A program made the position numbers and the translations under genes. This document shows, piece by piece, positions 6,877 to 29,524 of a stretch of 29,524 nucleotides of DNA. The first letter of the stretch is position 1, and every line of letters starts with the position of its first letter. Origin of the DNA: a virus (Duplodnaviria; Heunggongvirae; Uroviricota; Caudoviricetes); the IMG/VR virus record IMGVR_UViG_2693429557_000011; one strand, 5' to 3'. Under the pieces are notes generated by a model. The model saw nothing but the letters and a program-made list of their open reading frames with translations, searched no databases and was not told where the DNA came from.

Positions 6877-6962
6877 CCGCGCAAATAAGACCCCAGGTTA
6901 AATAAGAAAATGTGAAAACAATCCGCATTCGCGGAGGTATTCGCACACGCCAAGGAGGCGTA

Positions 6963-7915: not shown

Positions 7916-7921
7916 ATCACT

Positions 7922-10789: not shown

Positions 10790-10820
10790 CGATTAATTAA
10801 TCAACATAAGGAAAAGCGAC

Positions 10821-11780: not shown

Positions 11781-11784
11781 ACCA

Positions 11785-12096: not shown

Positions 12097-12156
12097 CGAA
12101 TTTGACGGCTTTTAATTTTATCGGGGTGCACTGTCGCCCCGCACGAGGAAAACACG

Positions 12157-12917: not shown

Positions 12918-12931
12918 CTCAAGGGGGATTA

Positions 12932-13117: not shown

Positions 13118-13608
13118 AGGTAAGTCACACTAGGTGTTTTTTAGTTGATTTTATAAATGCACAATAGTGCACAAATTTGCACAATTTTTTTGAACGACTT
13201 TTTGCCCTTCCGGCCCGCGTGGCGGCTGGATCCGTCAAGGATCCGTGCATGCACAAAAAAACGCGTTTTTTCTGCGCGCAGGTGACGGGGGAACAGCCCG
13301 CGTTTCAGGGGGTAAATAGCATTCCCTGAACGATGTCGCAGAGATACAACAGAATGGCTGTATTTCTCACGCTGAGCGTGAAAAAGACGTGAGGGCTTTT
13401 GATTTGATGGGGTGAAAGGTAAGGCCGTCAAAATCGCACTGAGACGGCGAGAATATGCAGTCAACGAGGTGGGATTGCGTAAGAGTCTGACTGTCGATGA
13501 TGGCAATCAGCAGGAAAGCGTCGTGAAATTATCTGACTGATACAGGAGCTGGAGAGTCGGGGCATAAATTTTTTATGCCCCGGCGAAGCAGCAGACAAGC
13601 GAAGCGCG
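13118..13608. other. Non-coding cos-proximal region downstream of Q (probable packaging/cos region) with phased repeats and a palindrome
   Basis: In P2 the cos site lies just beyond the 3-prime end of Q. Here TGCACAA occurs at 13158, 13168 and 13178 (10-bp phasing), GGATCCGT at 13228 and 13239, and an A7-CGCG-T6 palindrome at 13255-13271. No convincing ORF; the minus-strand ORF 13141-13506 lacks coding character. Confidence 0.4.
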
Positions 13609-14655
13609 TCAGGATGTGGGCTGGGTGTCTAACAGTGCGTAAGGGTTAAAGCGGATCACCTCTTCGCCAAGCCAGTCATTGATGTGCTTCATGGCCTCCA
13701 TGACGGGCATCAGCTCGTTAATTGCGTAAACCCGCGCGGCCTTCTCCACATCACCAAACGCACTTTTTTCGCCCGGCATCGCCCCCATCAGTTGCGGCGG
13801 AACGCGGTGCGCAGCCAGCACATCATCACGGGATGCCGCCTTAACATTCATGAACTCATCCTTTGCGGTGATCTGCTGGAACGGCAAAATTTGCACCCCC
13901 TCTTTGCCCCCGTTGGGCGCATGAATGAGCACGTTTTTAAACGCACCACCACCACGTGCCCCCTGTAGCGTTTCTTTCAGGGAGTCCATGCTTTCGCGGT
14001 TTACCTGCGCTGCACCGATGTAGATGATGCACCCGGCGTGGGATCCGTTGTCGTAGTACAGTTTTCTGAACATGTCCGCCGAATGAGAAAGGCTGGCCGA
14101 GAGTAATGCGCCAAGATATTCCGGCATGCCGTAGATTTCCTGGTTAATATCCGGATTCATCAGGTGGCACACTTTGCCAGGACGAAACTGAAACGCATCC
14201 TTGCCATCCTGCACATACCACCATGATTCAAGATCGCTTCCGCGTCGCATGTATTTCGCCAGGGCGTGCCGTAATTTAAGCGGTTCGCCGAGCATATTGC
14301 TCCGAAGCTCAAGGAATGCGTTACCGAACACAAACCAGTCCAGCGCCAGCGCCGAGAAATCCTGCCGGGAAAGCAGCGGGTGCGGAATATAGCAGCCGAG
14401 CAATACATTGCGCTTAAAGTAAAGCGCAGACTGATGCCAGGACGTTTGCCGGGCAGCTCTTGCCAGACCGTACCAGTCCACCGGGGTTTCATACCACCGC
14501 CCGTTATCAGCACAGTACATATTGTCCAGCAGGTCATGCCCGGTCAGGCGGTAAGGACCATCAAATGTGAATGCACTGAGCGACGATTCTTTCCTGAGCG
14601 CATCAGCGAGATCAATGCGTGAACTCATGCGCACTTTTTTATTTTTTCTGCTCAT
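13609..14655 (-). CDS. Q: Portal protein (P2 gpQ-like)
   Basis: 348-aa ORF, size and position as P2 Q, directly downstream of and overlapping the terminase gene on the same strand. Confidence 0.9.
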   Translation of the reverse strand: MSRKNKKVRMSSRIDLADALRKESSLSAFTFDGPYRLTGHDLLDNMYCADNGRWYETPVDWYGLARAARQTSWHQSALYFKRNVLLGCYIPHPLLSRQDFSALALDWFVFGNAFLELRSNMLGEPLKLRHALAKYMRRGSDLESWWYVQDGKDAFQFRPGKVCHLMNPDINQEIYGMPEYLGALLSASLSHSADMFRKLYYDNGSHAGCIIYIGAAQVNRESMDSLKETLQGARGGGAFKNVLIHAPNGGKEGVQILPFQQITAKDEFMNVKAASRDDVLAAHRVPPQLMGAMPGEKSAFGDVEKAARVYAINELMPVMEAMKHINDWLGEEVIRFNPYALLDTQPTS

Positions 14656-16406
14656 CAGAACTCCATAACCGTGAAACGCTCGTTTTCTCCTTCGCCGCCA
14701 ATCGGTTCGTTAATGACAGCAAGCATGGTTGCCCACGCAAGGTCGCCGTGGCTGATCCCCCTCGCGCGGTCCGTTTCGTAAGTGATAAAACCGCCCGGTG
14801 TTTTCACCTTACGCACGGCGTTAAAGGCCGCAACCAGCTCGCGTTCGGCGCGATCGTATTCCCACCGCCCGGCACGCATTATTTGCAGCATTTTCAGTAC
14901 CAGCGACCGTTTTGATGACAGCGTGAAGGTGTAAGGGATGGCGGCGGGAAAAAACCGTTTCACTATCTGATAGACGGCATCCCCGTGCCCGCCCGTCGCA
15001 TCAATGCCGATGTGTTCCACGTTGTAGCGATACGTGAACTCTTCAATAACTCTGGCCTGCTCTTCAAATTCCAGCCCCTGAACGCGTCGCGTCTCCACCG
15101 TTCTGAAACGACCACCAGGAACAGCCGGAGGAACCACCACGGACACAGCGCCGCTGTCGCCGTTACCACTGCTGCCGTTTGCGTCATACCCAATCCATAC
15201 CGGACGATTCCCCATCGGGCGGGGGGCAAAGGGTTTCCAGTCTTTCCAGTCGTCGTATCCGTCAACACCGCAGCCAATCAGGATATTCAGGTTAAATGCC
15301 GATTCCCCTTCGCGGACAAACTCACACATATAGAGATTGCGGAACTCGTCTTCGGTGTTTTCATCACGAATTTCATCAATATCGGTGTGTTTCCAGCCGT
15401 GATTAACCACATCTTCCAGCGTGACAATTTGCCGCCACGTCCGGTCAGGGCAGATAAGCCCGTTATGCAGCGTTTTCCAGTCCACAGAAAAACGCTGGCG
15501 TTTATGCGCGGCCTTTTTCTCGTTCCAGCGGTCGCCGTTCCAGTAGGCGTATGCCTCGTGCGTTTCGGTGGATGGCGTGGAGAAGCAGGTGCGCCGCAGT
15601 CCGCTGAGGGTTGCCATAGCGCCAGCCACCTTGCGCAGTTCAGCAAAGCGACTGACCCAGAAAAATTCATCAAAATAAAAATTGCCCGTGTAAGATTGCG
15701 CCGTCGCAGCAGAAGTGCCGAGAAAATGCATCTCTGCGCCGTTGGAGAGGATGATTTTATCGCCCCCTTTCAGCTCCACATCGACTTCAGCCGCGGCCTT
15801 CTGAATAATGCTTTTAAACTGGAACGCCTGACGACGCGACGCAGACAAAAAAATCTGGTTACGCTGGTAAGGTTGTGCCACATCGTCACGCAGCGCCATC
15901 AGCAGTGCTTCCTGTGCAAAATACCAGGTCGCCCCAATCTGTCGGGATTTCAGGATCATCCTGTTACGTATCCCGGCTTCCCTGCAAAGCGTCAGGGAGT
16001 CAAACCAGCCCCGCTGATGCCACTCCAGCCTGCTGATGATTTTTTCCCGCAGTGCGGCAATCTGTTCCGGCGTGAAATGATTTTTGAGTTTTTTCGCCCG
16101 GCCTTTCTTTCCTGTGGCCGTCGCATCCGGCTGGCCATCATGCAGTTTTTTAAGCTGCCGGGTCAGCAGGTCTATTTCCTTAAAGTCACCACCTGTTTTA
16201 TTCTGTTTTTCAGTAAGCTGGATGAGGCGCGCATCGATGGACTGCGTGACACGCTGCACGGGTGGCGTTTCATCCCACTGGTCGCGTTTTTTCCACGCAT
16301 AAATCGTGTTCGGGTTTATTCCCATCAGACGTGATATTTCTGCGGGCGGATAACCCTGCCAGTAAAGTTGCCGCGCACGCTGGCGCACAAAAGCGTCCTG
16401 AATCAT
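14655..16406 (-). CDS. P: Terminase large (ATPase) subunit (P2 gpP-like)
   Basis: 583-aa ORF divergent from the capsid operon, as P is from O in P2; size close to P2 gpP. Confidence 0.9.
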   Translation of the reverse strand: MIQDAFVRQRARQLYWQGYPPAEISRLMGINPNTIYAWKKRDQWDETPPVQRVTQSIDARLIQLTEKQNKTGGDFKEIDLLTRQLKKLHDGQPDATATGKKGRAKKLKNHFTPEQIAALREKIISRLEWHQRGWFDSLTLCREAGIRNRMILKSRQIGATWYFAQEALLMALRDDVAQPYQRNQIFLSASRRQAFQFKSIIQKAAAEVDVELKGGDKIILSNGAEMHFLGTSAATAQSYTGNFYFDEFFWVSRFAELRKVAGAMATLSGLRRTCFSTPSTETHEAYAYWNGDRWNEKKAAHKRQRFSVDWKTLHNGLICPDRTWRQIVTLEDVVNHGWKHTDIDEIRDENTEDEFRNLYMCEFVREGESAFNLNILIGCGVDGYDDWKDWKPFAPRPMGNRPVWIGYDANGSSGNGDSGAVSVVVPPAVPGGRFRTVETRRVQGLEFEEQARVIEEFTYRYNVEHIGIDATGGHGDAVYQIVKRFFPAAIPYTFTLSSKRSLVLKMLQIMRAGRWEYDRAERELVAAFNAVRKVKTPGGFITYETDRARGISHGDLAWATMLAVINEPIGGEGENERFTVMEF

Positions 16407-16560
16407 TGCTCCCCCTGAGTAATTACAGGAAGATTACCCGCGCGCGAAACCGTTCTCCTTAACCCCCTGTTCTGGCCGTTTTCTTACAACAAAAGCCCTT
16501 TGTATCAGCCTGTTACGCTTTGCCATCATGACTGAAGAACCAGTCAGAGGGGCAAAAACT
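16407..16560. promoter_or_regulatory. Divergent late-promoter region between P (leftward) and O (rightward)
   Basis: 154-bp intergenic region in the position of the P2 late P/O promoters; no clean TGT-N12-ACA Ogr-type dyad found (only TGT-N15-ACA), so the activator site is unassigned. Confidence 0.4.
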
Positions 16561-17397
16561 ATGGCTAATGAAAAAAAGACATCCCGCAAAAAGTTTCGCG
16601 TGGCTGTCTCCGGATCAACTGTTGATGGCCGTGAAATCAGTCCGGTGCATCTGCGTGAAGCCGCCGAGAACTTCAACCCGGATGTTTACGCTGCCCGCGT
16701 GAACGTTGAGCACTATCTCTCGCCATGCCCGTCAAGCGAATTTTCCGCAATGGGCGATGTCACCGCACTGAGTACGGAAGACATTACGGAAGGTCCGCTG
16801 GCCGGACGTACTGCGCTGTATGCAGAAATCGAACCGACCGAGCGCATGAAGCAGCTTGTCGCGGACGGCAAGAAAATCTATTCCAGTATCGAACTGCACC
16901 CGCAGTTCTCCGTTAACGGGCGCGCCTATCTGGTCGGGCTGGCGATGACCGACACCCCGGCAAGCCTGGGCACTGAGCGCCTGAAATTCACGGCACAGCA
17001 ACGTCAGGCGGTGATGACGTTCAACAGTATCCAGGGTGAAGCACCGCTTATCTCCGAAGCCATCGAGTCTGAAATCATCGAAATGGCAGAACAACGCCAG
17101 GAAGAAGGCACCCAGTGGTTTAACCGCGTAATGGGGATTATTGGTCGTGGCCGCAAAGCGGATGACGCCAGTTTCTCCCGTATTCAGGAAGCGGTGGAAA
17201 GCGTCGCAACGTCACAGGCCGACATTATCGACCGTTTTAATGCGCTGGAAACACGCCATCAGCAGGACAGCCAGAAAATCACTTTACTGACCACGGAGCT
17301 GACAGCACTGAAGGAAAAACTGCGCACGCAGGACGGCGATCCGCAGAACCGGTTCACCGCAACGGGCGCAGCCTCCGACCAGCTGGCTGACTTCTGA
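16561..17397 (+). CDS. O: Capsid scaffolding protein (P2 gpO-like)
   Basis: About 278 aa from MANEKKTSRKKFRVAVSGSTVDGREIS..., with a conserved YLVGLAMTDTPASLGTE segment like P2 gpO; the longer ORF start at 16528 is less likely. Confidence 0.85.
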   Translation: MANEKKTSRKKFRVAVSGSTVDGREISPVHLREAAENFNPDVYAARVNVEHYLSPCPSSEFSAMGDVTALSTEDITEGPLAGRTALYAEIEPTERMKQLVADGKKIYSSIELHPQFSVNGRAYLVGLAMTDTPASLGTERLKFTAQQRQAVMTFNSIQGEAPLISEAIESEIIEMAEQRQEEGTQWFNRVMGIIGRGRKADDASFSRIQEAVESVATSQADIIDRFNALETRHQQDSQKITLLTTELTALKEKLRTQDGDPQNRFTATGAASDQLADF

Positions 17398-17420
17398 TAA
17401 GACAAAGGAGCAAATTTTTT

Positions 17421-18473
17421 ATGAATCTGGTGATGTCAGATATTACCCGCAACAAGCTGGGTTGCTATATGGCGCAGCAGGCGTCGCTTAACAATATCCC
17501 GGTTTCTGCACTGGTATCGCGATTTACCGTGGAACCTGCGGTGCAGCAACGTTTTGAAAACGCCTCAAAGGATAGCACCGAACTTACAAAAAAAATTAAC
17601 GTGATCGGCGTGACCGACCAGAAAGGCGAAAAAATCCTCCTGGACACCACAGGACCGATTGCACGCACAAATACCAGTTATGACGGAACAAAACGCCGTA
17701 ACCCGAATAACGTGGTTGATCTGAAAAACCGCAAATACCAGTGCGAACAGGTGAACTACGACACGTTTATTTCGTATCCGCAGCTTGATGCCTGGTCGGC
17801 ACACAGCGATTTTCAGTCCCGCATCAGCGCACAGATTGCCCGACAGGTGGCACTTGACCGCATCATGATCGGTTTCAACGGCACATCTCACGCGGATGAG
17901 TCCAACTTCAGCACCAACAAGCTGCTTCAGGACGTTAACGTGGGGTGGCTGGAGCACATCAGAACCAATGCCAGCGAGCGCGTAATGAATGACGTGACGC
18001 TGACTTCCCGCAACATGGACAACACCGTGGCGCACGCGGGTAAATACGCGAACCCTGATGCACTGGTACAGGACGCGCGCTCATCTCTGCTGGATGAATG
18101 GCACAAGGAAGCTGACGACCTCGTGGTGATTATGGGGCGCAACCTGTTTAACTCGCTGCGTCTGCCAGTGCTGAACAGCATCAGCGGCCAGAATCCCAAT
18201 GCGGAATTACTTGCCGGGCAGCTCATCCTGTCATCGCGCACCATTGGCGGGCTGGGTGTGTTCCTTGCACCGTTCTTCCCGGATGCAACGATGCTGATCA
18301 CCTCATTCAACAACCTGTCGATTTACTGGCAGAAAGGTTCAATGCGTCGTCTGATGAAAGACGAACCGGAATACAACCGCATCGCCACCTACCAGTCCAT
18401 CAATGACGCTTATGTCGTTGAAGACTATGGCAAGTGCGCGATGGTCACTGGCCTGAAGTTCGCCGACAGCTAA
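17421..18473 (+). CDS. N: Major capsid protein (P2 gpN-like)
   Basis: 350-aa ORF with FTVEP, GFNG, VGWL and YVVEDY segments matching P2 N-family capsid proteins; follows O. Confidence 0.9.
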   Translation: MNLVMSDITRNKLGCYMAQQASLNNIPVSALVSRFTVEPAVQQRFENASKDSTELTKKINVIGVTDQKGEKILLDTTGPIARTNTSYDGTKRRNPNNVVDLKNRKYQCEQVNYDTFISYPQLDAWSAHSDFQSRISAQIARQVALDRIMIGFNGTSHADESNFSTNKLLQDVNVGWLEHIRTNASERVMNDVTLTSRNMDNTVAHAGKYANPDALVQDARSSLLDEWHKEADDLVVIMGRNLFNSLRLPVLNSISGQNPNAELLAGQLILSSRTIGGLGVFLAPFFPDATMLITSFNNLSIYWQKGSMRRLMKDEPEYNRIATYQSINDAYVVEDYGKCAMVTGLKFADS

Positions 18474-18518
18474 TCAACTCACGGCGGGCATCATGCCCGC
18501 CTGTAACGGAGAGAAAAA

Positions 18519-19319
18519 ATGATTACTCCTGCACAGCAACACTGGCAGAACGTGATGGCACAGCGCGCAGGCCGGGCGAATGAAGGTGTGGACCACGCCG
18601 CGCGTACCGCGCATGAAGAGGTGCTGTATCGTCTGCGTCTGGCACAGGCCCGGCTTAAGGGCGTACAGGCCAGAAGCGCGAAAGCCGACATCAAAAAAGC
18701 GTTGTTGCCGGACTTTTCCGGCTGGATTGAGGGAACGCTGGAGGCTGACGGCGGGCAACAGGACGAAGTGATTGCCACGCTGATGGTGTGGGCGATTGAC
18801 TGCGGCGATCTTCCGCTTGCGCTGCGTATTGGTGCGTATGCGGTCCGTCACAACCTCATCATGCCGGATAACTTTGGCCGTACTGCTGCCACAGTGCTGA
18901 CCGAAGAAATCTGCAATCCGGTACTGACGCAGGCCGGGACGGATGCCGACGCGGATTTGTCCGTCTTTATCGAACCACTGGACACACTTTGGGAAATTGT
19001 CGCCAACCAGGATATGCCGGACGAAGTGCGCGCCAAATTATGCAAGGCGTGCGCCTTTGCCCGCCGTGGCCTGAGCGATGCGGACAGCATGGCCTCATCA
19101 CTGAAGCTGCTGCGCGAAGCGATGCATCTGAACCAGAACGCAGGTGTGAAACGCGAGATTGCAACCCTTTCCCGCGCCCTGAAAAAAGCCGATTCCGCAG
19201 CCGCACCAGAAGACGCCAGCGCACAGCAGGCGCAGGACGAAAGCAGCGAAAGTAAAAAGACAACGCGGAAGCCTGCAACACGAAAAACCACCGCGACGCA
19301 GAAGGCGAAGCGCGGTTAA
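18519..19319 (+). CDS. M: Terminase small/endonuclease subunit (P2 gpM-like)
   Basis: 266-aa ORF with TADMPDEVRAKL-like segment (here NQDMPDEVRAKL) and a basic Lys/Arg-rich C-terminal tail as in P2 M. Confidence 0.85.
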   Translation: MITPAQQHWQNVMAQRAGRANEGVDHAARTAHEEVLYRLRLAQARLKGVQARSAKADIKKALLPDFSGWIEGTLEADGGQQDEVIATLMVWAIDCGDLPLALRIGAYAVRHNLIMPDNFGRTAATVLTEEICNPVLTQAGTDADADLSVFIEPLDTLWEIVANQDMPDEVRAKLCKACAFARRGLSDADSMASSLKLLREAMHLNQNAGVKREIATLSRALKKADSAAAPEDASAQQAQDESSESKKTTRKPATRKTTATQKAKRG

Positions 19320-19335
19320 CGACTGACCCCGTCAG

Positions 19336-19406
19336 CGGGCGGCGTGCGCGGTGTTCCGGTTTGGCTCCGTGACCGTTTACACCGCGCACCCACCGCCCGA
19401 TTTTTT
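19336..19406 (+). terminator. Large GC-rich hairpin followed by T6 between M and L (candidate attenuator or intrinsic terminator)
   Basis: Left arm CGGGCGGCGTGCGCGGTG (19336-19353) pairs with right arm CACCGCGCACCCACCGCCCG (19380-19399) apart from a small internal loop; followed by A then TTTTTT (19401-19406). Confidence 0.35.
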
Positions 19407-19420
19407 CAGGAGTGAACCCC

Positions 19421-19915
19421 ATGAGTATGGTTGCCAGAACTGAACCCGGACCCGCAGAGGACGACATCACCGACACCGAAGATGGCGATACCCGTATTTC
19501 AGCGAGTGCATTCTGGCCGGATATTGTGCTGCGCGAGCTGCGTCTGGCGGTACGACTGCCGGGCCGCGTGACCACCTCCCGCCTGCTGCATACCGCCACC
19601 GGGGCCGTGGCACACGTTACCCGCGAGCTGGAAGCATGGCAGCAGGAACAGCAGGCGGCTGGCCATCAGACGCTGGCCGATGTTCCGGCACCTGTAATTA
19701 ACGGAGAAAGCGTCAATCTCTGGCACTGGCGCAATGCTGTTTATACCGCCACACGCGCCCTGATTCTGGAGCGTTACCGCGATGCGGACACAACGGACAA
19801 GGGCGACCGCCGGGCGGACGCACTGGATATACAGACATCGGATTTGTGGCGCGATGTGAGCTGGGCCATCTCTGACATTCTGTGCCGCCCGCGAATCTTT
19901 GCGGAGTTGTGCTGA
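19421..19915 (+). CDS. L: Head completion/stabilisation protein (P2 gpL-like)
   Basis: ATG at 19421 is 9 nt after AGGAG; LADVPA and DLWRDV segments match P2 L; stop overlaps the X start (ATGA). Confidence 0.8.
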   Translation: MSMVARTEPGPAEDDITDTEDGDTRISASAFWPDIVLRELRLAVRLPGRVTTSRLLHTATGAVAHVTRELEAWQQEQQAAGHQTLADVPAPVINGESVNLWHWRNAVYTATRALILERYRDADTTDKGDRRADALDIQTSDLWRDVSWAISDILCRPRIFAELC

Positions 19916-20112
19916 TGAAAGTGAAGACACTGGAAGGCGACACCGTGGATTCGCTCTGTTTCCGGTACTACGGCACGACGCAGGGCGTCACCGAAAAGGT
20001 GCTGGATGCCAACCCCGGACTCTGCCGACAGGTATTTCTGGAAGCCGGACAGGAGGTGGAAATGCCGGAGCCGGAGAAGAAAAAACAACGAGAGATGATA
20101 CAGCTATGGTAA
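19915..20112 (+). CDS. X: Tail protein X (P2 gpX-like, LysM-like small protein)
   Basis: 65 aa, MKVKTLEGDTVDSLCFRYYG...ANPGL, closely parallel to P2 X (MKTFALQGDTLDAICVRYYG...ANPGL). Confidence 0.75.
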   Translation: MKVKTLEGDTVDSLCFRYYGTTQGVTEKVLDANPGLCRQVFLEAGQEVEMPEPEKKKQREMIQLW

Positions 20113-20408
20113 CAGGTTTTTTTCAGCGGGTGAGTGACTGGATCACCTTCTGGGCATCAGTCACAGCCACCACAATAGGCGTGATGACCATCAGTGAAAA
20201 AATCGCCCTTGCCGGGTTGTTACTCGGTTCTCTGTCTGCATTACATGCCTGGCGACATCGCCGCCTGATGGAAACCGCCATGCAGCGTCGCAATGAACTC
20301 ATCGCCAGTATCCTGGCGCAGTCAGACGCACGGCCACTTCACGACAGTGAGCGTCAGGCTCTGAACATTCTGCGGGATAACGATACACATGATAAAGCTG
20401 CCCGTTAA
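20106..20408 (+). CDS. Holin (P2 gpY position)
   Basis: 100 aa with two hydrophobic segments and a charged C-terminus, immediately upstream of the endolysin. Confidence 0.55.
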   Translation: MVTGFFQRVSDWITFWASVTATTIGVMTISEKIALAGLLLGSLSALHAWRHRRLMETAMQRRNELIASILAQSDARPLHDSERQALNILRDNDTHDKAAR

Positions 20409-20937
20409 ACGTTACGCCGTAGCCGCCATTGTGGCGCTGGGGTTCTCCATTGCCCCTCACAAACTCCGGACCAGCCCGGAAGCGCAAATCCGCATTGCCA
20501 CATGGGAGGACTGTCGCGCAACGCCTTACCGGGATATTGCCGGGGTAATGACCGTGGGGTGCGGCTCGACCGGGCATGTGGAAAATCGTCTGTACACCGA
20601 AACGGAAGTCGCCGGGCGCTGGGTTAATGATATGCAACATGCAGAAAACTGCATAAATCAGAACTTCAGCGGCAACGCCATGCCACAGTCCGCGTTTGAG
20701 GCAATGACAGATGCCGCCTTTAATCTTGGATGCAGAAATCTTATGTGGTTCAGGGATAAGAACCGTAACTACCACCGCACCACTATCTGGAAACATGCAC
20801 AGGCGCACAACTGGCCTGACATGTGCAACAGACTGACTGACTTCGTGAACAGCGGCGGCGAACGCTCACAGGGACTGGTTAACCGTCGTACTGATTTTCG
20901 TGCATGGTGCTTACGTGACACCGGAGGCCAGTCATGA
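20389..20937 (+). CDS. Endolysin, lysozyme-type with N-terminal signal-anchor-release (SAR) segment
   Basis: 182 aa; Gly/Ala-rich weakly hydrophobic N-terminus (YAVAAIVALGFSIAP) followed by catalytic spacing E-x8-D-x5-T (WEDCRATPYRDIAGVMT), like the phage 21 SAR endolysin. Confidence 0.8.
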   Translation: MIKLPVKRYAVAAIVALGFSIAPHKLRTSPEAQIRIATWEDCRATPYRDIAGVMTVGCGSTGHVENRLYTETEVAGRWVNDMQHAENCINQNFSGNAMPQSAFEAMTDAAFNLGCRNLMWFRDKNRNYHRTTIWKHAQAHNWPDMCNRLTDFVNSGGERSQGLVNRRTDFRAWCLRDTGGQS

Positions 20938-21407
20938 AAGTGCGTTACATCCTGATGATGGCACTGACCGTCCTCACGCTGCTGACCATAACACTCTGGC
21001 AGACATTCAGACTGGGGCAGGAAGACGGACACAACCGTTATACACAGGCGCAACTGGACGATTACAGCCGGACCCTGAAAGAGGCCGGCACCATCATCAG
21101 CACCGCATCCGGTGTACTGCGTGACGTCATGACAGCGCGCCAGAACCGACAACAGGAAGGGGAAATCCGACGTGAACAGCTACGCAACGATATCACGACA
21201 GATGCATGTGCCCGCGCTGTTCCTGACGCTCGCTTTACTGAGCGGTTGCACCAGCACGCAGAACGCGTCCGCGCCGCCGCCGTCGTTCCGTTTCATCCCG
21301 GAAGGGCTGACCGCCCCCGTACTTCCCCCGCCGTTTCCGGTGACGCCATCATGGGGAAACATCGGGATATGGAGCGACAGCCTCATGGACGCACTGGAAA
21401 CCTGTAA
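20934..21407 (+). CDS. Inner-membrane spanin component (Rz / LysB-like)
   Basis: 157 aa with an N-terminal transmembrane helix then a charged coiled-coil-like region; its 3-prime third overlaps the o-spanin gene in another frame. Confidence 0.55.
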   Translation: MKVRYILMMALTVLTLLTITLWQTFRLGQEDGHNRYTQAQLDDYSRTLKEAGTIISTASGVLRDVMTARQNRQQEGEIRREQLRNDITTDACARAVPDARFTERLHQHAERVRAAAVVPFHPGRADRPRTSPAVSGDAIMGKHRDMERQPHGRTGNL

Positions 21408-21492
21408 CGCCGATAAGCGGGCCATTGAATTACTGGAACAGCGCAGGCTGCAACGACTGAACAACGAGGACAACAACCATGCTGAAAACTGA
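21202..21492 (+). CDS. Outer-membrane lipoprotein spanin component (Rz1 / LysC-like), overlapped architecture
   Basis: Signal peptide with lipobox LLSGC, proline-rich mature region (APPPSFRFIPEGLTAPVLPPPFPVTP); starts inside the i-spanin gene in the +1 frame and extends beyond its stop. Confidence 0.6.
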   Translation: MHVPALFLTLALLSGCTSTQNASAPPPSFRFIPEGLTAPVLPPPFPVTPSWGNIGIWSDSLMDALETCNADKRAIELLEQRRLQRLNNEDNNHAEN

Positions 21493-21946
21493 TTCCCTGC
21501 GTGAAGCCATGACCCGTTCATGCCGGTGGTGTCATGCCAACCCGGAAAAATTCACCATTTTCGTGGAGAGCGGCAACATTGAAACGACCGGAGAAACCCC
21601 ATCGTTTGTTTACCGCTATCAGATAGTGATGTTTGTCATGGATTACGCCGGAGAGCTGGACGACCTCACGCTGCCGCTGCTGGCGTGGTTATCCGAAAAT
21701 CAGCCACAGTTGTTGCTCAATCCGGAGCGTAATCAGGACATCAAATTTTCCGCCGTTATCAATGACGATGACAGCGCCGATCTCCTGTTTACGCTCCCCC
21801 TGCGGGAACGCGTTCGCATCACGCGCAGCAGTCAGGGCACACCGCAGGCAGAACACCTGCCGGAGCCAAAACCCCGCCTGCCCTCTTCCGAAGGCGACTG
21901 GTCGCATGTATTCCAGGATGTGACGTGGGGGGAAAGCGATGGATAA
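21479..21946 (+). CDS. R: Tail completion protein (P2 gpR-like)
   Basis: 155 aa, MLKTDSLREAMT...LPLLAWLSENQP, parallel to P2 R (MLKPDSLRRALT...VPVLAWLRENQP). Confidence 0.8.
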   Translation: MLKTDSLREAMTRSCRWCHANPEKFTIFVESGNIETTGETPSFVYRYQIVMFVMDYAGELDDLTLPLLAWLSENQPQLLLNPERNQDIKFSAVINDDDSADLLFTLPLRERVRITRSSQGTPQAEHLPEPKPRLPSSEGDWSHVFQDVTWGESDG

Positions 21947-22574
21947 GGCATTCACCCGCGTGGATGAAACCTTTGAGGCTATCCGCGACAGCCTGAATCA
22001 GCAGGCCATTAATAACATCGCCAGAAAGCTGGCACAGGATTTACGCCGCGCCCAGCAGGCGCGTATCCGGTCACAGAAAGCGCCGGACGGGACCGCATGG
22101 ACACCACGCAGACGCCGCGTAACCCGGATACAGGAGCGCATTCGCTTTATCTGGAATAACGAAGCACGCACGCTGAAAAACTGGCATCACGACACGGGGA
22201 AATACGGGCGAACCATCACCGGGTGGGATGAGGATAAAAACAATATCCGCACGTTTTACCGGGATGACATCGACCGTTTTCTGGAAATACGCACCCGGCG
22301 CATCAACCAGGACAGCACCAGGCGCGTCTCCATGTTCGTAAAACTGCGCACCGCCCGCTACCTGAAAGCCCGTGCAGATGCTTCCGGTGTGACGGTGGGT
22401 TACAGCGGCGTGGCCGCACGTATTGCACGCGTTCATCAGTTCGGTGAGCGCGATCAGGTTGCGCCGGGCATTTTCACCGATTACCCGGTACGTGAGCTGC
22501 TGGGTATCAGCCAGGCAGATGAGCGCCTGATTTATAACACGGTGCTGGGCCGGATTGCGGAGGCTGTACGATGA
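21939..22574 (+). CDS. S: Tail completion / virion morphogenesis protein (P2 gpS-like)
   Basis: 211-aa ORF between R and V; assigned by position and family-like character; longer than P2 S. Confidence 0.65.
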   Translation: MDKAFTRVDETFEAIRDSLNQQAINNIARKLAQDLRRAQQARIRSQKAPDGTAWTPRRRRVTRIQERIRFIWNNEARTLKNWHHDTGKYGRTITGWDEDKNNIRTFYRDDIDRFLEIRTRRINQDSTRRVSMFVKLRTARYLKARADASGVTVGYSGVAARIARVHQFGERDQVAPGIFTDYPVRELLGISQADERLIYNTVLGRIAEAVR

Positions 22575-23152
22575 GCGCAGAACTCATGCGACTGCTGAGC
22601 AATATCATCCGCACCGGGATCATCTCTGAAGTTGATGAGGAATCCTGGTGCGTGCGCGTTCGCAGCGGCGAACTGGAAACAGGCTGGCTGCGCTGGAACA
22701 CCACGCGCGCGGGAGACTTCAACGTGTGGTTTCCGCCATCACCAGGCGAACAGGTGGCAATTGCCTGCATCGGCGGCAACCCGGAAACCGCCATGATAAT
22801 CGGCAGCCTGTGGAGTGATGCCATTCCGGCACCCGGCAAAAGCCTGAAAGAAATCGTGGTCAGCGCGCCGGACGGCGCGGTGTTCCGCTACGACGCGGAC
22901 GCAGGCGCACTGAGCGCAAGCGGCATGAAAACGGCCACTTTGCAGGCATCCATCAGCGTGACACTGAACACGCCTGTCGTGGAATGCACAGACCTTCTGA
23001 GAACAGCGACGCTTGACGTCACAAAAGGGGGAACGATGAGCGGCAATATCACGCACAGCGGCGGCGATTTCACCTCAAACGGCATCACAGTGCATACGCA
23101 TAAGCACGGTGGCGTTAAAGGTGGCAGCGATTCGACAGGAGGCCCGCAGTGA
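22571..23152 (+). CDS. V: Baseplate spike protein (P2 gpV-like)
   Basis: 193-aa ORF in conserved order S-V-W-J; Gly-rich C-terminus. Confidence 0.8.
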   Translation: MSAELMRLLSNIIRTGIISEVDEESWCVRVRSGELETGWLRWNTTRAGDFNVWFPPSPGEQVAIACIGGNPETAMIIGSLWSDAIPAPGKSLKEIVVSAPDGAVFRYDADAGALSASGMKTATLQASISVTLNTPVVECTDLLRTATLDVTKGGTMSGNITHSGGDFTSNGITVHTHKHGGVKGGSDSTGGPQ

Positions 23153-23499
23153 CAACCCGCTACACAGGAATGAACCCGGACGGGACGGGAAACCTGAACG
23201 ATATGGCGCACCTGAAACAGTCAGTCAGGGACATCCTGACCACCCCGCTGGCAAGCCGGGTTATGCGACGGGAATATGGCAGCCTTGTGCCTGATTTGAT
23301 TGACGAACCCATGAATAACACCACGCGTCTGCAATGCATGAGTGCTACCGTGATTGCACTGACACGATGGGAACCACGCATTGCCCTGAACGCCATCGAC
23401 GTTGTCTGGAAGGCAGGAGGCCACGCCGGGGTGACGCTGTCGGGCACTGTCATGCAGACCATGCAGAATGTTGAATTAACCATCACGCTGAGGGAGTAA
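23149..23499 (+). CDS. W: Baseplate wedge protein (P2 gpW-like)
   Basis: 116-aa ORF, size and position as P2 W; start overlaps the V stop. Confidence 0.8.
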   Translation: MTTRYTGMNPDGTGNLNDMAHLKQSVRDILTTPLASRVMRREYGSLVPDLIDEPMNNTTRLQCMSATVIALTRWEPRIALNAIDVVWKAGGHAGVTLSGTVMQTMQNVELTITLRE

Positions 23500-23502
23500 A
23501 TC

Positions 23503-24399
23503 ATGCCTGCCGTTGACCTTTCCCAGTTACCGGAACCCGCCATCATCGCGGAGCCTGACTTTGAGGCAATTCTGGCTGACACAAAGGCCATGATGATTGC
23601 AGCTTATCCCGCCGAACAGCGTGAAGTCGTCTCCGCCGCACTGGAACTGGAATCGGAACCCCTGAACGTTATCGCTCAAACCATGTCGTTTCGTGAAATG
23701 CTGTTACGCCAGCGGGTCAATGAGGCCGCACGCGCCTGCATGTTGAGCCACAGCGCCGGAACAGACCTGGACAACCTCGCGGGCAATATGAACACAAAGC
23801 GCCTGGTTATCACTCCGGCAACGGATACCACCGACGTGGTGATGGAGAACGACACCTCGCTGAGACTGCGGGCGCAGCGGGCGTATGACGGCCTGAGTGT
23901 TGCAGGCCCGTCAGGCGCATACGAGTATTTTGCCCGCAGCGCCAGCGGTCTGGTGCGCGATGCGCGGGCCATCAGTCCGTCTCCGGCAAATGTGACGGTT
24001 TCCATCCTGTCCACTGAGGGCGACGGCACAGCAACGGAGGCGTTGCTTAATACCGTTCGCGCCGTTCTGAATGCAGAGGATACCCGCCCGGTGGCCGACC
24101 GCCTGACCGTACAGAGTGCCAGAATCGTGACATGGCGGCTGAATGCAAAACTGTACTTTTACCCCGGTCCGGAATCCGAACCTATTCTGGCTGCGGCTGA
24201 ATCGTCGTTCAGGAAGTGGCTGGCTGAGCAGGGGCTTATCGGTCAGGACGTGGCGTTGTCCGCCATTGCTGCCGCACTGCATGTGCACGGTGTGCAACGC
24301 GTGGAGATAATCGAACCCACACAGAATATGGCCATCAGCGACATACAGGCGGCGCGCTGTGAGTCATTCACCATCAGCGAAGGTGGGCGTAATGAGTAA
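23503..24399 (+). CDS. J: Baseplate assembly protein (P2 gpJ-like)
   Basis: 298-aa ORF, size and position as P2 J. Confidence 0.85.
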   Translation: MPAVDLSQLPEPAIIAEPDFEAILADTKAMMIAAYPAEQREVVSAALELESEPLNVIAQTMSFREMLLRQRVNEAARACMLSHSAGTDLDNLAGNMNTKRLVITPATDTTDVVMENDTSLRLRAQRAYDGLSVAGPSGAYEYFARSASGLVRDARAISPSPANVTVSILSTEGDGTATEALLNTVRAVLNAEDTRPVADRLTVQSARIVTWRLNAKLYFYPGPESEPILAAAESSFRKWLAEQGLIGQDVALSAIAAALHVHGVQRVEIIEPTQNMAISDIQAARCESFTISEGGRNE

Positions 24400-24922
24400 T
24401 TCACTGTTACCACCATCAGCCAGCAATTTCATGCGTTGTGCCGAAGCCGTCGGAACACGCATTACAGACATTCCGGCAGACCTCAACACGCTGTGGTCGC
24501 CGGACACCTGCCCGGTGCATCTGCTGCCTTATCTCGCCTGGGCGTTTTCCGTTGACCGCTGGGATCGCAACTGGCCGGAAGAGACAAAGCGACAGGTGAT
24601 TCGTGATGCATGGCTGATACACCGACACAAAGGAACCATCAGCGCCCTGCGACGGGCCATTGAGCCGCTGGGATACCTCATTCGCGTGTCTGAGTGGTGG
24701 GAGTTCAACGGCGAACCCGGAACATTCAAGATTGATGTTGGCACGCTGGACAGTGGCGTGACGGAGGAAATGTATCTGGAAATGGAGCGGTTGATTGCTG
24801 ATGCCCGCCCGGTCAGCCGCCACATGACAGGGCTGAATATCATTCAGGAGATTCAGGGAGATATTTTCGCGGCAGCAGCAACTTACGACGGTGAAGTCAT
24901 TACCATTTATCCGGACGATTAA
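24392..24922 (+). CDS. I: Baseplate/tail protein (P2 gpI-like)
   Basis: About 176 aa from MSNSLLPPSAS...; its ATG overlaps the J stop. Confidence 0.8.
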   Translation: MSNSLLPPSASNFMRCAEAVGTRITDIPADLNTLWSPDTCPVHLLPYLAWAFSVDRWDRNWPEETKRQVIRDAWLIHRHKGTISALRRAIEPLGYLIRVSEWWEFNGEPGTFKIDVGTLDSGVTEEMYLEMERLIADARPVSRHMTGLNIIQEIQGDIFAAAATYDGEVITIYPDD

Positions 24923-24924
24923 GC

Positions 24925-25847
24925 ATGAGTACCACAACACGAAAATTTAAAACCATTATCACCGATACGGGTGCAAAAAAATTAGCGCAGGCAACCGCGC
25001 CAGATGGGAAACCTGTCCGCCTGACACATATGGCCGTGGGTGACGGCGGCGGTACTTTACCCACGCCAGACAGTAAGCAGACCCGTCTTGTGCATGAGGT
25101 GTGGCGACATACCGTTAATCGCGTCACCCTGGACGCAACACATCAGAACCACATTATTGCGGAGCTGGTTATTCCTCCTGAAACGGGCGGATTCTGGATC
25201 CGGGAAATTGGTGTGTTTGATGAGCACGGCGATTTGATCGCGGTAGGCAATACTGCCGAAAGTTACAAGCCAACCGTTGCCGAAGGATCCGGACGTGCAC
25301 AAACATTTCGCACCATTCTGACCGTATCCAGCACTGCCACTGTGGCGCTTACCGTGGATAACACCATGGTGATGGCCACAGTGAATTACGTGGATGACAA
25401 ACTGAAAGAGCATGAACAGTCACGACGTCACCCGGACGCCTCGCTGACCGCAAAAGGCCTTGTCCAGCTCAGCAACGCCACCAACAGCACGTCTGAAACG
25501 CTGGCAGCGACACCAAAAGCCGTTAAGGCAGTAATGGATGAAACGAACAAGAAAGCCCCATTAAACAGCCCGGCACTGACCGGAACGCCAACAACACCAA
25601 CTGCGCGACAGGGAACGAATAATACCCAAATCGCAAGCACGGCTTTCGTTATGGCTGCGATTGCCGCCCTTGTAGATTCGTCACCTGATGCACTGAACAC
25701 GCTGAACGAGCTGGCTGCGGCGCTGGGCAACGACCCGAATTTTGCGACCACCATGACTAACGCGCTTGCGGGTAAGCAACCGAAAGATGCCACTCTGACG
25801 GCGCTGGCGGGGCTTGCTACTGCGGCAGACAGGTTTCCGTATTTTAC
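24925..25847 (+). CDS. H: Tail fibre protein (P2 gpH-like), N-terminal ~307 codons only; frame ends at the NN junction
   Basis: MSTTTRKFKTIITDTGAKKLAQATAP...HEVWRH...IAELVIPPE matches the P2 H N-terminus and continues through the conserved LSNATNSTSETLAATPKAV...KQPKDATLTALAGL module; broken at NN 25848-25849. Confidence 0.7.
25462..25793. repeat. About 330-bp tail-fibre module, near-identical to 29193-29524 (shared between the H-like and Stf-like genes)
   Basis: Direct comparison of the two stretches shows long runs of identical sequence (for example ...ctgaccggaacgccaacaacaccaactgcgcgacagggaacgaataatacccaaatcgcaagcacggctttcgttatggctgcgattgcc...). Confidence 0.8.
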
Positions 25848-25849
25848 NN
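25848..25849. other. Ambiguous bases (NN) at an abrupt P2-like / lambda-like junction
   Basis: Two N characters; the reading frame and the apparent phage family both change across them. Confidence 0.9.
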
Positions 25850-26962
25850 CGCAGTGTGAACACCGTTGGCAAATCGGCATTCGTGGAGGCTGTCGGTCGG
25901 GCGAGCGATGATGCGGAAGGTTACTTGGATTTTTTCAAAGGAGAGATAGGGAAAACACATCTGGCTCAGGAGCTGTGGACGCAGATTGATAACGGTCAGC
26001 TTGCGCCTGACCTGGCTGAAATCAGGACGTCCATTACGGATGTCAGCAATGAAATCACGCAGACCGTCAATAAGAAACTGGAAGACCAGAGTGCGGCAAT
26101 TCAGCAGATACAGAAGGTTCAGGTTGATACAAATAATAATCTGAACAGCATGTGGGCTGTGAAGCTGCAACAGATGAAGGACGGACGCCTTTATATTGCG
26201 GGTATCGGTGCCGGTATTGAGAATACGCCAGCAGGAATGCAGAGTCAGGTGCTGCTGGCGGCAGACAGGATTGCGATGATTAATCCTGCGAATGGCAACA
26301 CAAAGCCGATGTTTGTTGGTCAGGGCGATCAGATATTCATGAACGACGTGTTCCTGAAACGCCTGACGGCTCCCACCATTACCAGCGGCGGTAATCCTCC
26401 GGCATTTTCCCTGACACCGGACGGAAAACTGACCGCTAAAAATGCAGATATCAGTGGCAGTGTGAATGCGAACGCCGGGACGCTCAACAATGTCACAATT
26501 AATGAGAACTGTCAGATTAAGGGGAAACTGTCAGCCAACCAGATTGAAGGCGATATAGTCAAAACAGTGGGTAAGGCTTTTCCGCGGGACTCCCGGGCAC
26601 CGGAGCGGTGGCCATCAGGGACCATTACCGTCAGGATTTATGACGATCAGCCTTTTGACAGGCAAATTGTTATTCCGGCGGTGGCATTCAGCGGCGCTAA
26701 ACATGAGCGGGAGAATAACGATATTTATTCGTCATGCCGCCTGATAGTACGGAAAAACGGTGCTGAAATTTATAACCGTACCGCGCTGGATAATACGCTG
26801 ATTTACAGTGGTGTTATTGATATGCCAGCTGGTCGCGGCCACATGACGCTGGAGTTTTCGGTGTCAGCATGGCTGGTGAATAACTGGTATCCCACAGCAA
26901 GTATCAGCGATTTGCTGGTTGTGGTGATGAAGAAAGCCACCGCAGGCATCAGTATCAGCTGA
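25850..26962 (+). CDS. C-terminal part (about 370 aa) of a lambda J-like host-specificity / central tail fibre protein (5-prime truncated at NN)
   Basis: Open frame with no plausible start, lying immediately upstream of lom as J does in lambda; assignment is mainly positional with only a vague sequence recollection. Confidence 0.5.
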
Positions 26963-26981
26963 ATTTTATAACCCATATACG

Positions 26982-27008
26982 GGCGCCAGAAATGGCGCCT
27001 TTTTTATT
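26982..27008 (+). terminator. Rho-independent terminator after the J-like gene
   Basis: GGCGCC (26982-26987), a 6-nt loop, GGCGCC (26994-26999), then TTTTTTATT. Confidence 0.6.
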
Positions 27009-27029
27009 GCAGAAAAGCGAGAGGTAATT

Positions 27030-27661
27030 ATGCGTAAAGTTTGTGCAGCCATTTTGTCCGCAGCCATTTGCCTGGCCGTATCCGGTGCGCCTGCATGGGC
27101 GTCTGAACATCAGTCCACACTGAGCGCGGGGTATCTTCATGCCCGTACGAACGCTCCCGGCAGCGATAATCTGAACGGGATTAACGTGAAATACCGTTAT
27201 GAGTTTACGGACGCGCTGGGGCTGNNNNNNNNNNNNNNNNNNNNNNNNNNNNNNNNNNNNNNNNNNNNNNNNNNNNNNNNNNNNNNNNNNNNNNNNNNNN
27301 NNNNTACAGCGATACCCGCTGGCATGAAGATTCCGTGCGTAACCGCTGGTTCAGCGTGATGGCGGGGCCGTCTGTACGCGTGAATGAATGGTTCAGCGCG
27401 TATGCGATGGTGGGTGTGGCTTACAGCCGTGTGTCGACTTTCTCCGGGGATTATCTCCGCGTAACTGACAACAAGGGGAAAACGCACGATGTGCTGACCG
27501 GAAGTGATGACGGTCGCCACAGCAACACGTCTCTGGCGTGGGGGGCTGGCGTGCAGTTTAACCCGACCGAATCCGTGACCATTGACCTTGCTTATGAAGG
27601 TTCCGGTAGTGGTGACTGGCGAACGGATGCATTTATTGTTGGTATCGGATACCGTATCTGA
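27030..27661 (+). CDS. lom: Lom-family outer-membrane beta-barrel protein (Ail/Lom/OmpX/PagC family), interrupted by an 80-N gap
   Basis: Signal peptide MRKVCAAILSAAICLAVSGAPAWA, GINVKYRYEFTD, VMAGPSVRVNEWFSAYAMVGVAYSR, and the C-terminal AYEGSGSGDWRTDAFIVGIGYRI, nearly identical to the lambda Lom C-terminus as recalled; the two halves are out of frame because of the gap. Confidence 0.8.
27225..27304. other. Run of 80 N (assembly gap or masked segment) inside lom
   Basis: Literal n characters; flanking reading frames are offset, so the true length is unknown. Confidence 0.95.
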
Positions 27662-27766
27662 CAACAGACGCCGATTTATCTTCTGTAAATATTGTTATGA
27701 TACGCAGGTTCATCCACCTTATGGGGTGAACTGCGTTTGAGGAAACGTAAAGTTACACTGTCCTGA

Positions 27767-27798
27767 AGCCCGTGGCGTCACTGCTGCGGGCTTTTTTT
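27767..27798 (+). terminator. Rho-independent terminator between lom and stf
   Basis: AGCCCG (27767-27772), 14-nt loop, CGGGCT (27787-27792), running into T7. Confidence 0.55.
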
Positions 27799-27812
27799 AT
27801 TGGTGGAAAAGT

Positions 27813-29524
27813 ATGACAGTAAAAATTTCTGGCGTGCTTAAAGATGGCACAGGAAAACCAGTACAGAACTGCACCATTGTGCTGAAGGCCAGACGAACCA
27901 GCAGCACGATGGTGGTGAACACGGTGGCCTCTGAAAATCCGGATGAAGCCGGACGTTACAGCATGGATGTTGAGCATGGTCAGTACAGCGTCACCCTGCT
28001 GGTTGAAGGTTTTCCGCCTTCACATGCCGGGACCATTACCGTCTATGAAGGTTCCAGACCAGGTACGCTGAATGATTTTCTCGGTGCCATGACGGAGGAT
28101 GATGTCCGACCGGAGGCACTGCGCCGCTTTGAGCAGATGGTGGAAGAGGTGTCACGTAACGCCTCCGCGGTTGCACAGAATACGGCAGCCGCGAAAAAAT
28201 CAGCCAGCGAGGCGGCAACTCATGCAACCGATGCTGCAGCCTCAGCACGTGCCGCCAGCACGTCAGCCGGACAGGCCGCGTCGTCGGCTCAGTCAGCGTC
28301 TTCCAGCGCAGGAACGGCATCGACAAAGGCCCGTGAAGCAGCAAAAAGTGCTGCTGCAGAGTCATCAAAAAGCGCGGCAGCTACCAGCGCCAGTGCCGCG
28401 AAAACGTCAGAAACGAATGCCGCAGCATCACAAAAATCGGCAGCCACTTCTGCATCCACAGCGACCACGAAGGCGTCAGAAGCTGCCACCTCGGCACGGG
28501 GTGCGGCGGCCTCAAAAGAGGCAGCGAAATCTTCAGAAACGAATGCATCATCAAGTGCCAGTAGTGCAGCTTCCTCGGCAACGGCGGCAGGAAATTCCGC
28601 GAAGGCGGCAAAAACGTCCGAGACGAACGCTAAGTCTTCTGAAACAGCAGCGGGACAGAGCGCCTCAGCTGCGGCAGGTTCAAAAACAGCGGCTGCATTA
28701 TCTGCCAGTGCCGCGTCAACAAGTGCCGGGCAGGCCTCAGCCAGTGCCACCGCCGCCGGAAAATCGGCAGAAAGCGCCGCATCATCCGCTTCAACAGCCA
28801 CAACGAAGGCTGGCAAAGCCACTGAGCAAGCCACTGCAGCAGCGAGGTCTGCTTCTGCAGCAAAAACCTCTGAAACAAATGCAAAGACTTCAGCAGACAA
28901 TGCTGCTTCCTCTAAGGCAGCAGCCGCATCGTCAGCCAGTTCAGCGGCGTCATCGGCATCATCTGCGTCTGCTTCAAAAGATGAGGCGACCAGACAAGCG
29001 TCAGCAGCGAAAGGTAGTGCCACGACAGCAACAACGAAAGCATCAGAGGCGGCAGGCAGTGCGACGGCTGCATCTCAGAGCAAAGTTGCTGCTGAATCCG
29101 CGGCAACGCGCGCCGAGACAGCAGCAAAACGGGCAGAGGATATTGCATCCGCCGTGGCGCTTGAGGATGCGAGCACGACGAAAAAGGGGATAGTACAGCT
29201 CAGCAGTGCGACCAACAGCACTTCCGAGTCACTGGCGGCAACGCCAAAAGCGGTTAAGGCGGTAATGGGTGAAACGAACAAGAAAGCGCCCTTAAATAGT
29301 CCTGCACTGACCGGAACGCCAACAACACCAACTGCGCGACAGGGAACGAATAATACCCAAATCGCAAGCACGGCTTTCGTTATGGCTGCGATTGCCGCAC
29401 TTGTAGACTCTTCGCCTGATGCACTGAACACACTGAACGAGCTGGCGGCGGCGCTGGGCAACGACCCGAATTTTGCGACCACCATGACTAACGCGCTTGC
29501 GGGTAAGCAACCGAAAGATGCCAC
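27813..29524 (+). CDS. stf: Side tail fibre protein Stf (lambda Stf-like), 3-prime end beyond the window
   Basis: MTVKISGVLKDGTGKPVQNCTIVLKARRTSSTMVVNTVASENPDEAGRYSMDVEHGQYSVTLLVEGFPPSHAGTITVYE parallels the lambda Stf N-terminus, followed by a long Ala/Ser/Thr-rich repetitive region and the conserved LSSATNSTSESLAATPKAV module. The frame is open to the last base; it is absent from the ORF track because it has no stop in the window. Confidence 0.8.
   Translation, partial: MTVKISGVLKDGTGKPVQNCTIVLKARRTSSTMVVNTVASENPDEAGRYSMDVEHGQYSVTLLVEGFPPSHAGTITVYEGSRPGTLNDFLGAMTEDDVRPEALRRFEQMVEEVSRNASAVAQNTAAAKKSASEAATHATDAAASARAASTSAGQAASSAQSASSSAGTASTKAREAAKSAAAESSKSAAATSASAAKTSETNAAASQKSAATSASTATTKASEAATSARGAAASKEAAKSSETNASSSASSAASSATAAGNSAKAAKTSETNAKSSETAAGQSASAAAGSKTAAALSASAASTSAGQASASATAAGKSAESAASSASTATTKAGKATEQATAAARSASAAKTSETNAKTSADNAASSKAAAASSASSAASSASSASASKDEATRQASAAKGSATTATTKASEAAGSATAASQSKVAAESAATRAETAAKRAEDIASAVALEDASTTKKGIVQLSSATNSTSESLAATPKAVKAVMGETNKKAPLNSPALTGTPTTPTARQGTNNTQIASTAFVMAAIAALVDSSPDALNTLNELAAALGNDPNFATTMTNALAGKQPKDA

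Follow-up and report, generated by a model that had tools for sequence, protein, structure and literature searches.

A P2-to-lambda tail fibre junction in a Shigella sonnei draft scaffold is very probably a false join of contigs from two prophages

In a draft-assembly scaffold of Shigella sonnei, a P2-type tail fibre gene (H) gives way abruptly, across two uncalled bases, to a block of lambdoid tail genes. This switch is best explained as a false scaffold join of contigs derived from two prophages, and not as a hybrid phage, a reading to which a probability of about 93% is assigned. The window, that is, the whole stretch of DNA that was analysed (29,524 nt), is identical in sequence to the entire WGS record CXDR01000045.1 of assembly GCA_001260135.1 and thus represents one complete draft-assembly scaffold. 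The 368-aa product of the truncated J gene at the junction was found on two records, CXDR01000045.1 and CXDL01000021.1 (the sibling assembly, L022), both of which are annotated as Shigella sonnei. A look-up of the chimeric 328-aa H/J ORF gave no record, probably owing to its X residues. An earlier note on this DNA had preferred a scaffolding or mis-join artefact between two prophages, and this preference is upheld by the breaks in the reference matches at the NN, by the separate contexts in which the two blocks occur, and by the different partner to which the J contig is attached in the sibling.

The NN separates P2/P88-type H, to its left, from lambdoid J, to its right. That the switch from a P2-type fibre gene to a lambda-type J-lom-stf block lies exactly here, as had been claimed, is borne out by the reference matches, which break at 25847 and 25850. 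The H-like frame had been described as open up to the NN and as reaching a stop about 20 codons later, which proved accurate: the frame (24925-25911) contains H sequence only to 25847, reads approximately 20 codons of out-of-frame J sequence past the NN, and stops at 25909-25911. A different frame was correctly seen to run to 26962, with lom and stf next in lambda order; J homology extends from 25850 to the stop at 26960-26962, lom occupies 27030-27661 and stf begins at 27813. The mechanical ORF that covers the J fragment opens at a chance TTG (25814) to the left of the NN, and the in-frame GTG at 25856 is the likely gene-caller start, from which the 368-aa product is obtained. At the level of the genes, codon 308 of 678 in H is joined onto codon 788 of 1157 in J with the frames offset by one base. 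Both genes are truncated, with 370 codons of H and 787 codons of J missing at the join. At the other end of the block, stf remains open for 570 codons and then runs off the window, whose end falls in the conserved fibre module where H, too, is interrupted. The earlier note was silent on this run-off, on the position of the window end inside the shared module, and on the second gap, a run of 80 N within lom. The coordinates of all features are collected in Table 1.

Table 1. Features of the 29,524-nt scaffold, with positions, strand and the basis of each assignment.
Feature	Position	Strand	Basis or remark
30-nt terminus of an IS630-type insertion sequence, at the left scaffold end	1..30		matches only L006, L008, L009
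Contig 1: nlpC-btuD-btuE-btuC, then left arm of the P88/P2-like prophage (from ~3000) through gpI and H codons 1-308	1..25847	+	reference identity, gene order, Pfam
gpI (Tail_P2_I), last complete P2-type gene	24392..24922	+	
Truncated P2-type H with codons 1-308, the constant N-terminus (full length 678, or 656 in the alternative inversion state)	24925..25847	+	
Conserved tail-fibre module, H copy, common with stf	25573..25847	+	exact repeats 25573-25667 (95 nt) and 25717-25793 (77 nt)
Mis-phased patch with stf-type bases in H	25668-25716	+	between the 95- and 77-nt repeats
NN, scaffold-gap residue; very probable site of the false join	25848..25849		
Contig 2: 3' part of lambdoid J (25850-26962, codons 788-1157), intergenic region, 5' part of lom	25850..27224	+	100% identical to L022
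lom, Ail/Lom outer-membrane protein gene, broken by the 80-N gap	27030..27661	+	
80-N scaffold gap: correct join, size over-estimated (48 nt in all references)	27225..27304		
Contig 3: remainder of lom (3' part), then stf codons 1-570 (27813-29524), breaking off in the shared module	27305..29524	+	
stf copy of the shared module; H-type bases at 29399-29447	29283..29524	+	29448-29524 = 25717-25793

The structure of the record is that of a scaffold of three contigs. Both flanks of the 80-N gap are collinear with the references, which shows that the N-runs in CXDR01000045.1 are inter-contig gaps with roughly estimated sizes; this particular join, inside lom, is correct. For large-scale bacterial assembly with Velvet, SSPACE and GapFiller, the authors of one pipeline describe the tools as greedy and capable of false joins, each join being recorded as a run of N that GapFiller then attempts to close over many iterations; 299 S. 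sonnei assemblies are listed there, with a mean of 405 contigs (Page et al., 2016; PMC5320598). The present records resemble the output of that pipeline in that several contigs are scaffolded across N-runs that are short and uneven (2 and 80 N here; 1, 1 and 2 N in the sibling), in having joins at repeat boundaries, and in the duplication of sequence around gaps in the sibling. Judging by its species and type of accession, and by its gaps, which are irregular or only 1-2 N long, GCA_001260135.1 probably originates from a pipeline of the Velvet/SSPACE/GapFiller type. From the N's, furthermore, we infer that no reads span the NN. The idea that the NN masks two real bases of an otherwise continuous sequence was rejected, as its flanks are contiguous in no reference.

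A search across the junction bears on this point. Using positions 25350-26350 as the query, megablast against 5,426 complete E. coli genomes returned a match in 4,620 of them, and all alignments ended at query base 498 or started at query base 501, the bases that flank the NN. None of the 5,426 genomes spanned the junction, and in none was at least 80% of the query covered. In addition, the junction was absent from the longest contigs carrying identical flanking proteins (26 and 25, roughly 50 in total). When searched apart, the two blocks are common: 936 complete genomes contain the right block in collinear order, and 433 contain the H part. The best left reference continues with 370 further H codons, a tail-fibre assembly gene and the remaining P2-like tail region, and the best right reference is preceded by 787 J codons and lambdoid tail genes.

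The left block belongs to a P88-like prophage located between btuC and ihfA. Its gene order is P2-like of the P88 type (int, regulators, gpA, Q P O N M L X, lysis genes, R S V W J I H), and its nearest phages are P88 and Citrobacter phage Shae_phiSM. It is collinear with Escherichia phage P88 at ~96% identity over 74% of the query, and also with Shae_phiSM and with the btuC-ihfA prophages of 180 complete E. coli genomes; contig 1 is 99.99% identical to the complete genome CP180280.1 over 20.7 kb. At the reference locus, the prophage goes on through H, tfa, tail genes and D to ogr-hok-ihfA-pheT. In comparison with prophages of the P88/Peduovirus type, the window lacks the whole right arm, namely the variable part of H, tfa, the invertase gene, U, T, E, FII, FI, D, ogr and attR. 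The left context was assessed on 26 contigs with an identical baseplate protein, mostly complete chromosomes, of which ten long loci are considered here. These are 99.6-99.9% identical to the window up to its last base of H, 25847, and past that base they continue with an intact H (656 or 678 aa), tfa, an inverted tfa' and an inverted C-terminal cassette, followed by a Resolvase/HTH_7 invertase gene and then U, T, E, FII and FI. Neither J nor lom was present within 8.5 kb in the ten long loci. At the far left end, three relatives (L006, L008 and L009) have a DDE_3 transposase beside nlpC and are the ones that match the first 30 bases of the window, and IS-free relatives align to it only from base 31. 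This 30-nt IS overhang was considered as a measure of the assembler's k and dropped, because the other contig ends do not fit cleanly.

The right block has an equally ordinary context of its own. It carries the C-terminal domains of J, an Ail/Lom gene and the N-terminal domain of Stf, in an order collinear with lambdoid prophages. Relatives were retrieved by means of a recorded antisense ORF inside stf, and the block was found at 99.5-99.7% identity in four complete or near-complete chromosomes (L025, L030, L031 and L032) and in two drafts (L027 and L028). In the four chromosomes the order is T-H-M-L-K-I-J-lom-stf-tfa with the tape measure gene directly before M and tfa' after tfa, adjoining trpB/trpA. 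J is unbroken in the relatives at the equivalent of 25850, where ...TTTTTACGTT is followed directly by CGCAGTGTGAAC... in continuous sequence. Truncation of J at 25850 by an insertion sequence in this lineage was ruled out, since J is continuous there in long-read assemblies, with no IS or break. Because the blocks lie at btuC-ihfA and at trp, respectively, in complete genomes, they represent two distinct prophages at separate loci of the chromosome. To see whether J breaks where repeated sequence gives way to unique sequence, the 300 nt on either side of the breakpoint were counted in E. coli genomes; the two sides are about equally repeated (12,870 places upstream and 10,908 downstream, with a median of 2 per genome for both), so that the counts do not discriminate. 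A 608-aa S. sonnei J protein (P0001) contains an internal duplication that begins at the same residue as the J fragment.

Repeats are found at all free contig ends of the scaffold: IS630 on the left, multi-copy J, and the module shared by H and stf. Most E. coli genomes have several copies of J, and a "partial J" protein on a draft contig of 2-7 kb is a very common finding. Similarly, most assemblies with this P88-like prophage, many hundreds of drafts, split it into contigs of 20-50 kb. A conserved tail-fibre module is reportedly common to P2 H, lambda Stf, Mu S and P1 S. Within the window, H (25452-25847) and stf (29183-29524) are 90% identical, and in the references the near-identity of the two genes begins ~130 nt ahead of the H break and extends to a 26-bp site; the 165 nt leading up to this bix site are 100% identical in one P2-type H and lambdoid stf genes of other genomes. 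The earlier claim that P2 H and lambda Stf share a module prone to recombination and to assembly collapse thus found support in the exact runs of 95 and 77 nt and in six variant bases that are swapped between the two copies in the window.

The 26-bp site connects this module with a known inversion system. The bixL sequence, a PinB site of the Shigella boydii B segment, is matched at 26 of 26 positions in H of the relatives, 77 nt past the H break, and bixR is likewise matched at 26 of 26 positions, inverted, 3 kb downstream of bixL in relatives L015 and L020, where a Resolvase+HTH_7 gene is also present. It is directly past bixL that the two forms of H (678 and 656 aa) diverge. An exact bixR is also present in the lambdoid fibre region of the lineage, and an exact bixL in stf of L022. 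With the PinB/B-segment switch of S. boydii, a Din-family system of the same kind as Gin/G of Mu, Cin/C of P1 and Pin/P of e14, the relatives share inverted bixL/bixR sites, convergent tfa genes, an alternative C-terminal cassette and an adjacent invertase gene. These sites and the invertase belong to the relatives, not to the window, in which no Din-type site within 3 mismatches and no invertase gene were detected. Inversion by the Pin recombinase inside fibre genes has been documented for e14 (PMC12529663). Contig 1 ends 77 nt before bixL, and contig 3 ends 54 nt earlier in the module. It was considered whether the H contig ends exactly at the inversion crossover, and this was excluded, its end being 77 nt upstream of bixL and inside the module shared with stf. 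The break of the assembly within H is attributed to the tangling of the assembly graph by the PinB-type switch together with the shared module.

A second sign of assembly trouble was found 130-180 nt from the join. Window H differs from the L012 reference at seven positions, six of which are 25668, 25677, 25680, 25683, 25701 and 25716; window stf differs from L030 at seven positions as well, and six of these are the homologous columns within 29399-29447. In all six columns, the stf base stands in window H and the H base in window stf. The sibling L022 is unswapped at these columns. The patch is bounded by the exact repeats, and the swap is perfectly reciprocal, as is expected when an assembler is unable to phase two repeat copies. 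Such mis-phasing is the favoured explanation of the pattern; reciprocal gene conversion between far-apart loci, in one isolate only, is far less likely.

The sibling assembly provides an independent view of the same contig. In L022, the sequence of contig 2 is 100% identical and starts at the same base as 25850, after a single N. Its left partner there is the end of the P2-type tfa (position 14013 of L012), not H codon 308, and the point of attachment thereby lies 1.67 kb further along the prophage. The scaffold of L022 contains further N and NN gaps, has the H N-terminus twice, and doubles 1.3 kb of single-copy I-H sequence, and because of this duplication it is demonstrably mis-built. That the J contig has the same start and a different partner in the two assemblies identifies this start as a recurrent contig boundary, and the joins as scaffolding behaviour, not as a biological junction. 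The window and L022 also have six private variants in J and lom in common. Attachment of the same J contig to the P88-like fibre region in two sibling assemblies points to a systematic cause. By BLAST, the J contig showed no similarity to the P88-like fibre region that could account for cross-mapped read pairs.

A plausible course of events can be proposed for the false join. A scaffolder would have chained three short-read contigs of S. sonnei, contig 1 from the P88/P2-like prophage at btuC-ihfA and contigs 2 and 3 from the lambdoid prophage adjoining trpA, and the gaps between them would have been closed down to 2 N and 80 N. Both the H contig and the stf contig stop in a near-identical module of ~230 nt, directly upstream of the PinB bixL/bixR site. 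With two entries converging on the shared module and several alternative exits beyond it, a tangle in the assembly graph would be expected. At the NN, extension from the two sides probably consumed the estimated gap before any overlap of the ends was reached, leaving one or two N.

Two other readings were weighed against the false join. The blocks could truly be close to each other in a sub-lineage of S. sonnei, for instance after an inter-prophage rearrangement, with repeat DNA in the gap; the link would then be right, and the 2-nt size and the direct fusion wrong. Such proximity would agree with the placement of the J contig right after the P88-like fibre region in both CXDR and CXDL, which are independent isolates, and with the private J and lom variants common to them. 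The left partners nevertheless differ, H codon 308 in one case and the end of tfa in the other, and the second placement comes from the mis-built scaffold with its doubled I-H sequence. The bix sites and the near-identical module of both prophages are suitable substrates for exchange, but an exchange would be expected to fall at bix or in the module and not in the middle of J, where similarity to the P88-like region is lacking. Furthermore, both loci occupy ordinary, separate contexts in all long or complete assemblies. True proximity is considered very unlikely on this evidence, and a small share of the probability is kept for it because the same linkage occurs in two isolates with no BLAST similarity to account for it. 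Even if the blocks were truly close, the direct fusion of H codon 308 to J codon 788 would not be real. There is also a slender chance that the recurrent linkage reflects a real bix-mediated or homologous exchange between prophages about half a megabase apart, perhaps in a sub-population of cells.

A genuine mosaic, in which H codon 308 became joined to J codon 788 through illegitimate recombination and the NN stands for two uncalled bases, was the less favoured option of the earlier note and did not hold up. Tail-fibre regions are known hot spots of mosaicism, many decayed and rearranged prophages are present in S. sonnei, and sequence alone cannot prove that zero reads cross the NN. Against these general considerations stands the fact that none of the gap-free sequences examined contains the junction, and the fusion is out of frame and inactivates both genes. 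A real exchange between P2 H and lambda Stf modules would join inside the module and in frame; here, the module abuts the middle of J, outside the shared homology. The uncalled bases lie exactly where homology breaks, in a record in which N-runs are contig gaps, and the identical J start is tied to another partner in L022, again across an N. In addition, a phasing error of the assembler is found nearby, and neither the lambdoid tail genes that normally precede J nor the P2 tail genes that normally follow H are present. Such a mosaic is therefore regarded as extremely improbable, and a false join of contigs from the two prophages is retained as the explanation of the switch.

The biology underlying both sides of the junction is already known, comprising a P88-like prophage, a lambdoid J-lom-stf block, the module shared by H and Stf, and the PinB/B-segment switch; the join itself is no genetic element. 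Its biological interest is small, and its practical value lies in the caution it advises for annotation and prophage typing. As deposited, the sequence gives rise to a chimeric "tail fibre" ORF of 328 aa and a "host specificity protein J" of 368 aa, neither of which exists as such, and tools for prophage typing, pangenome analysis or host-range prediction would take the scaffold for a P2-lambda hybrid. If the exchange between prophages were true, chromosomal rearrangements or swapped receptor-binding cassettes would be rendered as odd joins by short-read scaffolders. More generally, the case illustrates a failure mode in which fibre genes that share a module upstream of a Din-invertase site tangle the assembly graph, giving rise to broken assemblies, false joins and silent base swaps between paralogues.

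The lambdoid J gene is called in two ORFs, of 547 and 513 aa or of 503 and 509/513 aa, in the lineage's long assemblies (L025, L028–L031 and L033), in contrast to the single J of about 1157 aa. This suggests that J is frameshifted in these relatives and that it is probably defective. The window and its sibling assembly have in common six variants that are private to them, at 26065, 26081, 26101, 27068, 27071 and 27075 in J and lom; these cluster in the manner of paralogue patches. Furthermore, a deposited Shigella sonnei product (P0001, the 608-aa 'Host specificity protein J') starts at the same position of the protein as the J fragment of the window, and part of its J C-terminal region is duplicated internally. 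This product, too, resembles an assembly artefact arising at that point in J.

In the sibling scaffold (L022, CXDL01000021.1), the N-free contig at 14753–19605 carries a P2-type I-H constant region, 100% identical to that of relative L012, which meets at bixL the variable cassette normally found 3' of lambdoid stf. The same I-H sequence is present a second time, earlier in the scaffold, and the contig represents either a gap-filling duplication or the trace of a genuine exchange at bix sites between the P88-like and the lambdoid prophage. In addition, two further drafts, probably also of S. sonnei (L029, FUFY01000052.1; L033, FUDX01000086.1), attach P2-type cassettes, invertase, U and T, or else sets of duplicated cassettes, to the lambdoid stf region across single-N gaps, which indicates that scaffolders were repeatedly misled by the fibre tangle. 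Within the window, comparison with complete genomes and the sibling assembly revealed six variant bases swapped reciprocally between 25668–25716 of the H contig and 29399–29447 of the stf contig, in a patch with an exact repeat on either side (95 and 77 nt). Assembler mis-phasing is the most likely origin of this swap, reciprocal gene conversion between H and stf being less likely.

The scaffold begins 30 nt within an IS630-type element (window 1–30). Among the relatives, only some (L006, L008 and L009) have this element next to nlpC; it is a lineage marker, and the left end of the scaffold is another repeat-caused contig end. At the second scaffold gap, all references carry 48 nt and are collinear on both flanks, so the join is correct and the 80-N gap size over-estimated; because this gap lies inside lom, the gene is annotated as two ORFs in the record. 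In the P2-like prophage, the plasmid-type partition genes encode a ParM/StbA-like protein (319 aa) and a Plasmid_stab_B protein. Ahead of them, a 42-nt repeat that contains a hairpin occurs twice (10678–10719 and 10751–10792).

Positions of scaffold, partition and inversion-site features in the window and its relatives
Feature	Sequence	Position	Location
Second scaffold gap, 80 N	Window	27225–27304	Inside lom
Plasmid-type partition genes	Window	10821–12096	P2-like prophage, directly after replication gene gpA
bix sites	L012/L015/L020	12423–12448 and 15498–15523	P88-like prophage; outside the window, relatives only
Exact bixR	L030/L031	6427–6452	Lambdoid fibre region, same lineage

In the relatives' P88-like prophage, bixL and bixR match the S. 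boydii B-segment sites exactly (26/26). The prophage also encodes an invertase of the Resolvase/HTH_7 type, and its H has two alternative C-termini, giving forms of 678 and 656 aa. Together, these features show that this prophage holds a PinB/B-segment host-range switch in the relatives. Since an exact bixR also occurs in the lambdoid fibre region, a single invertase could in principle serve both the P88-like and the lambdoid prophage.
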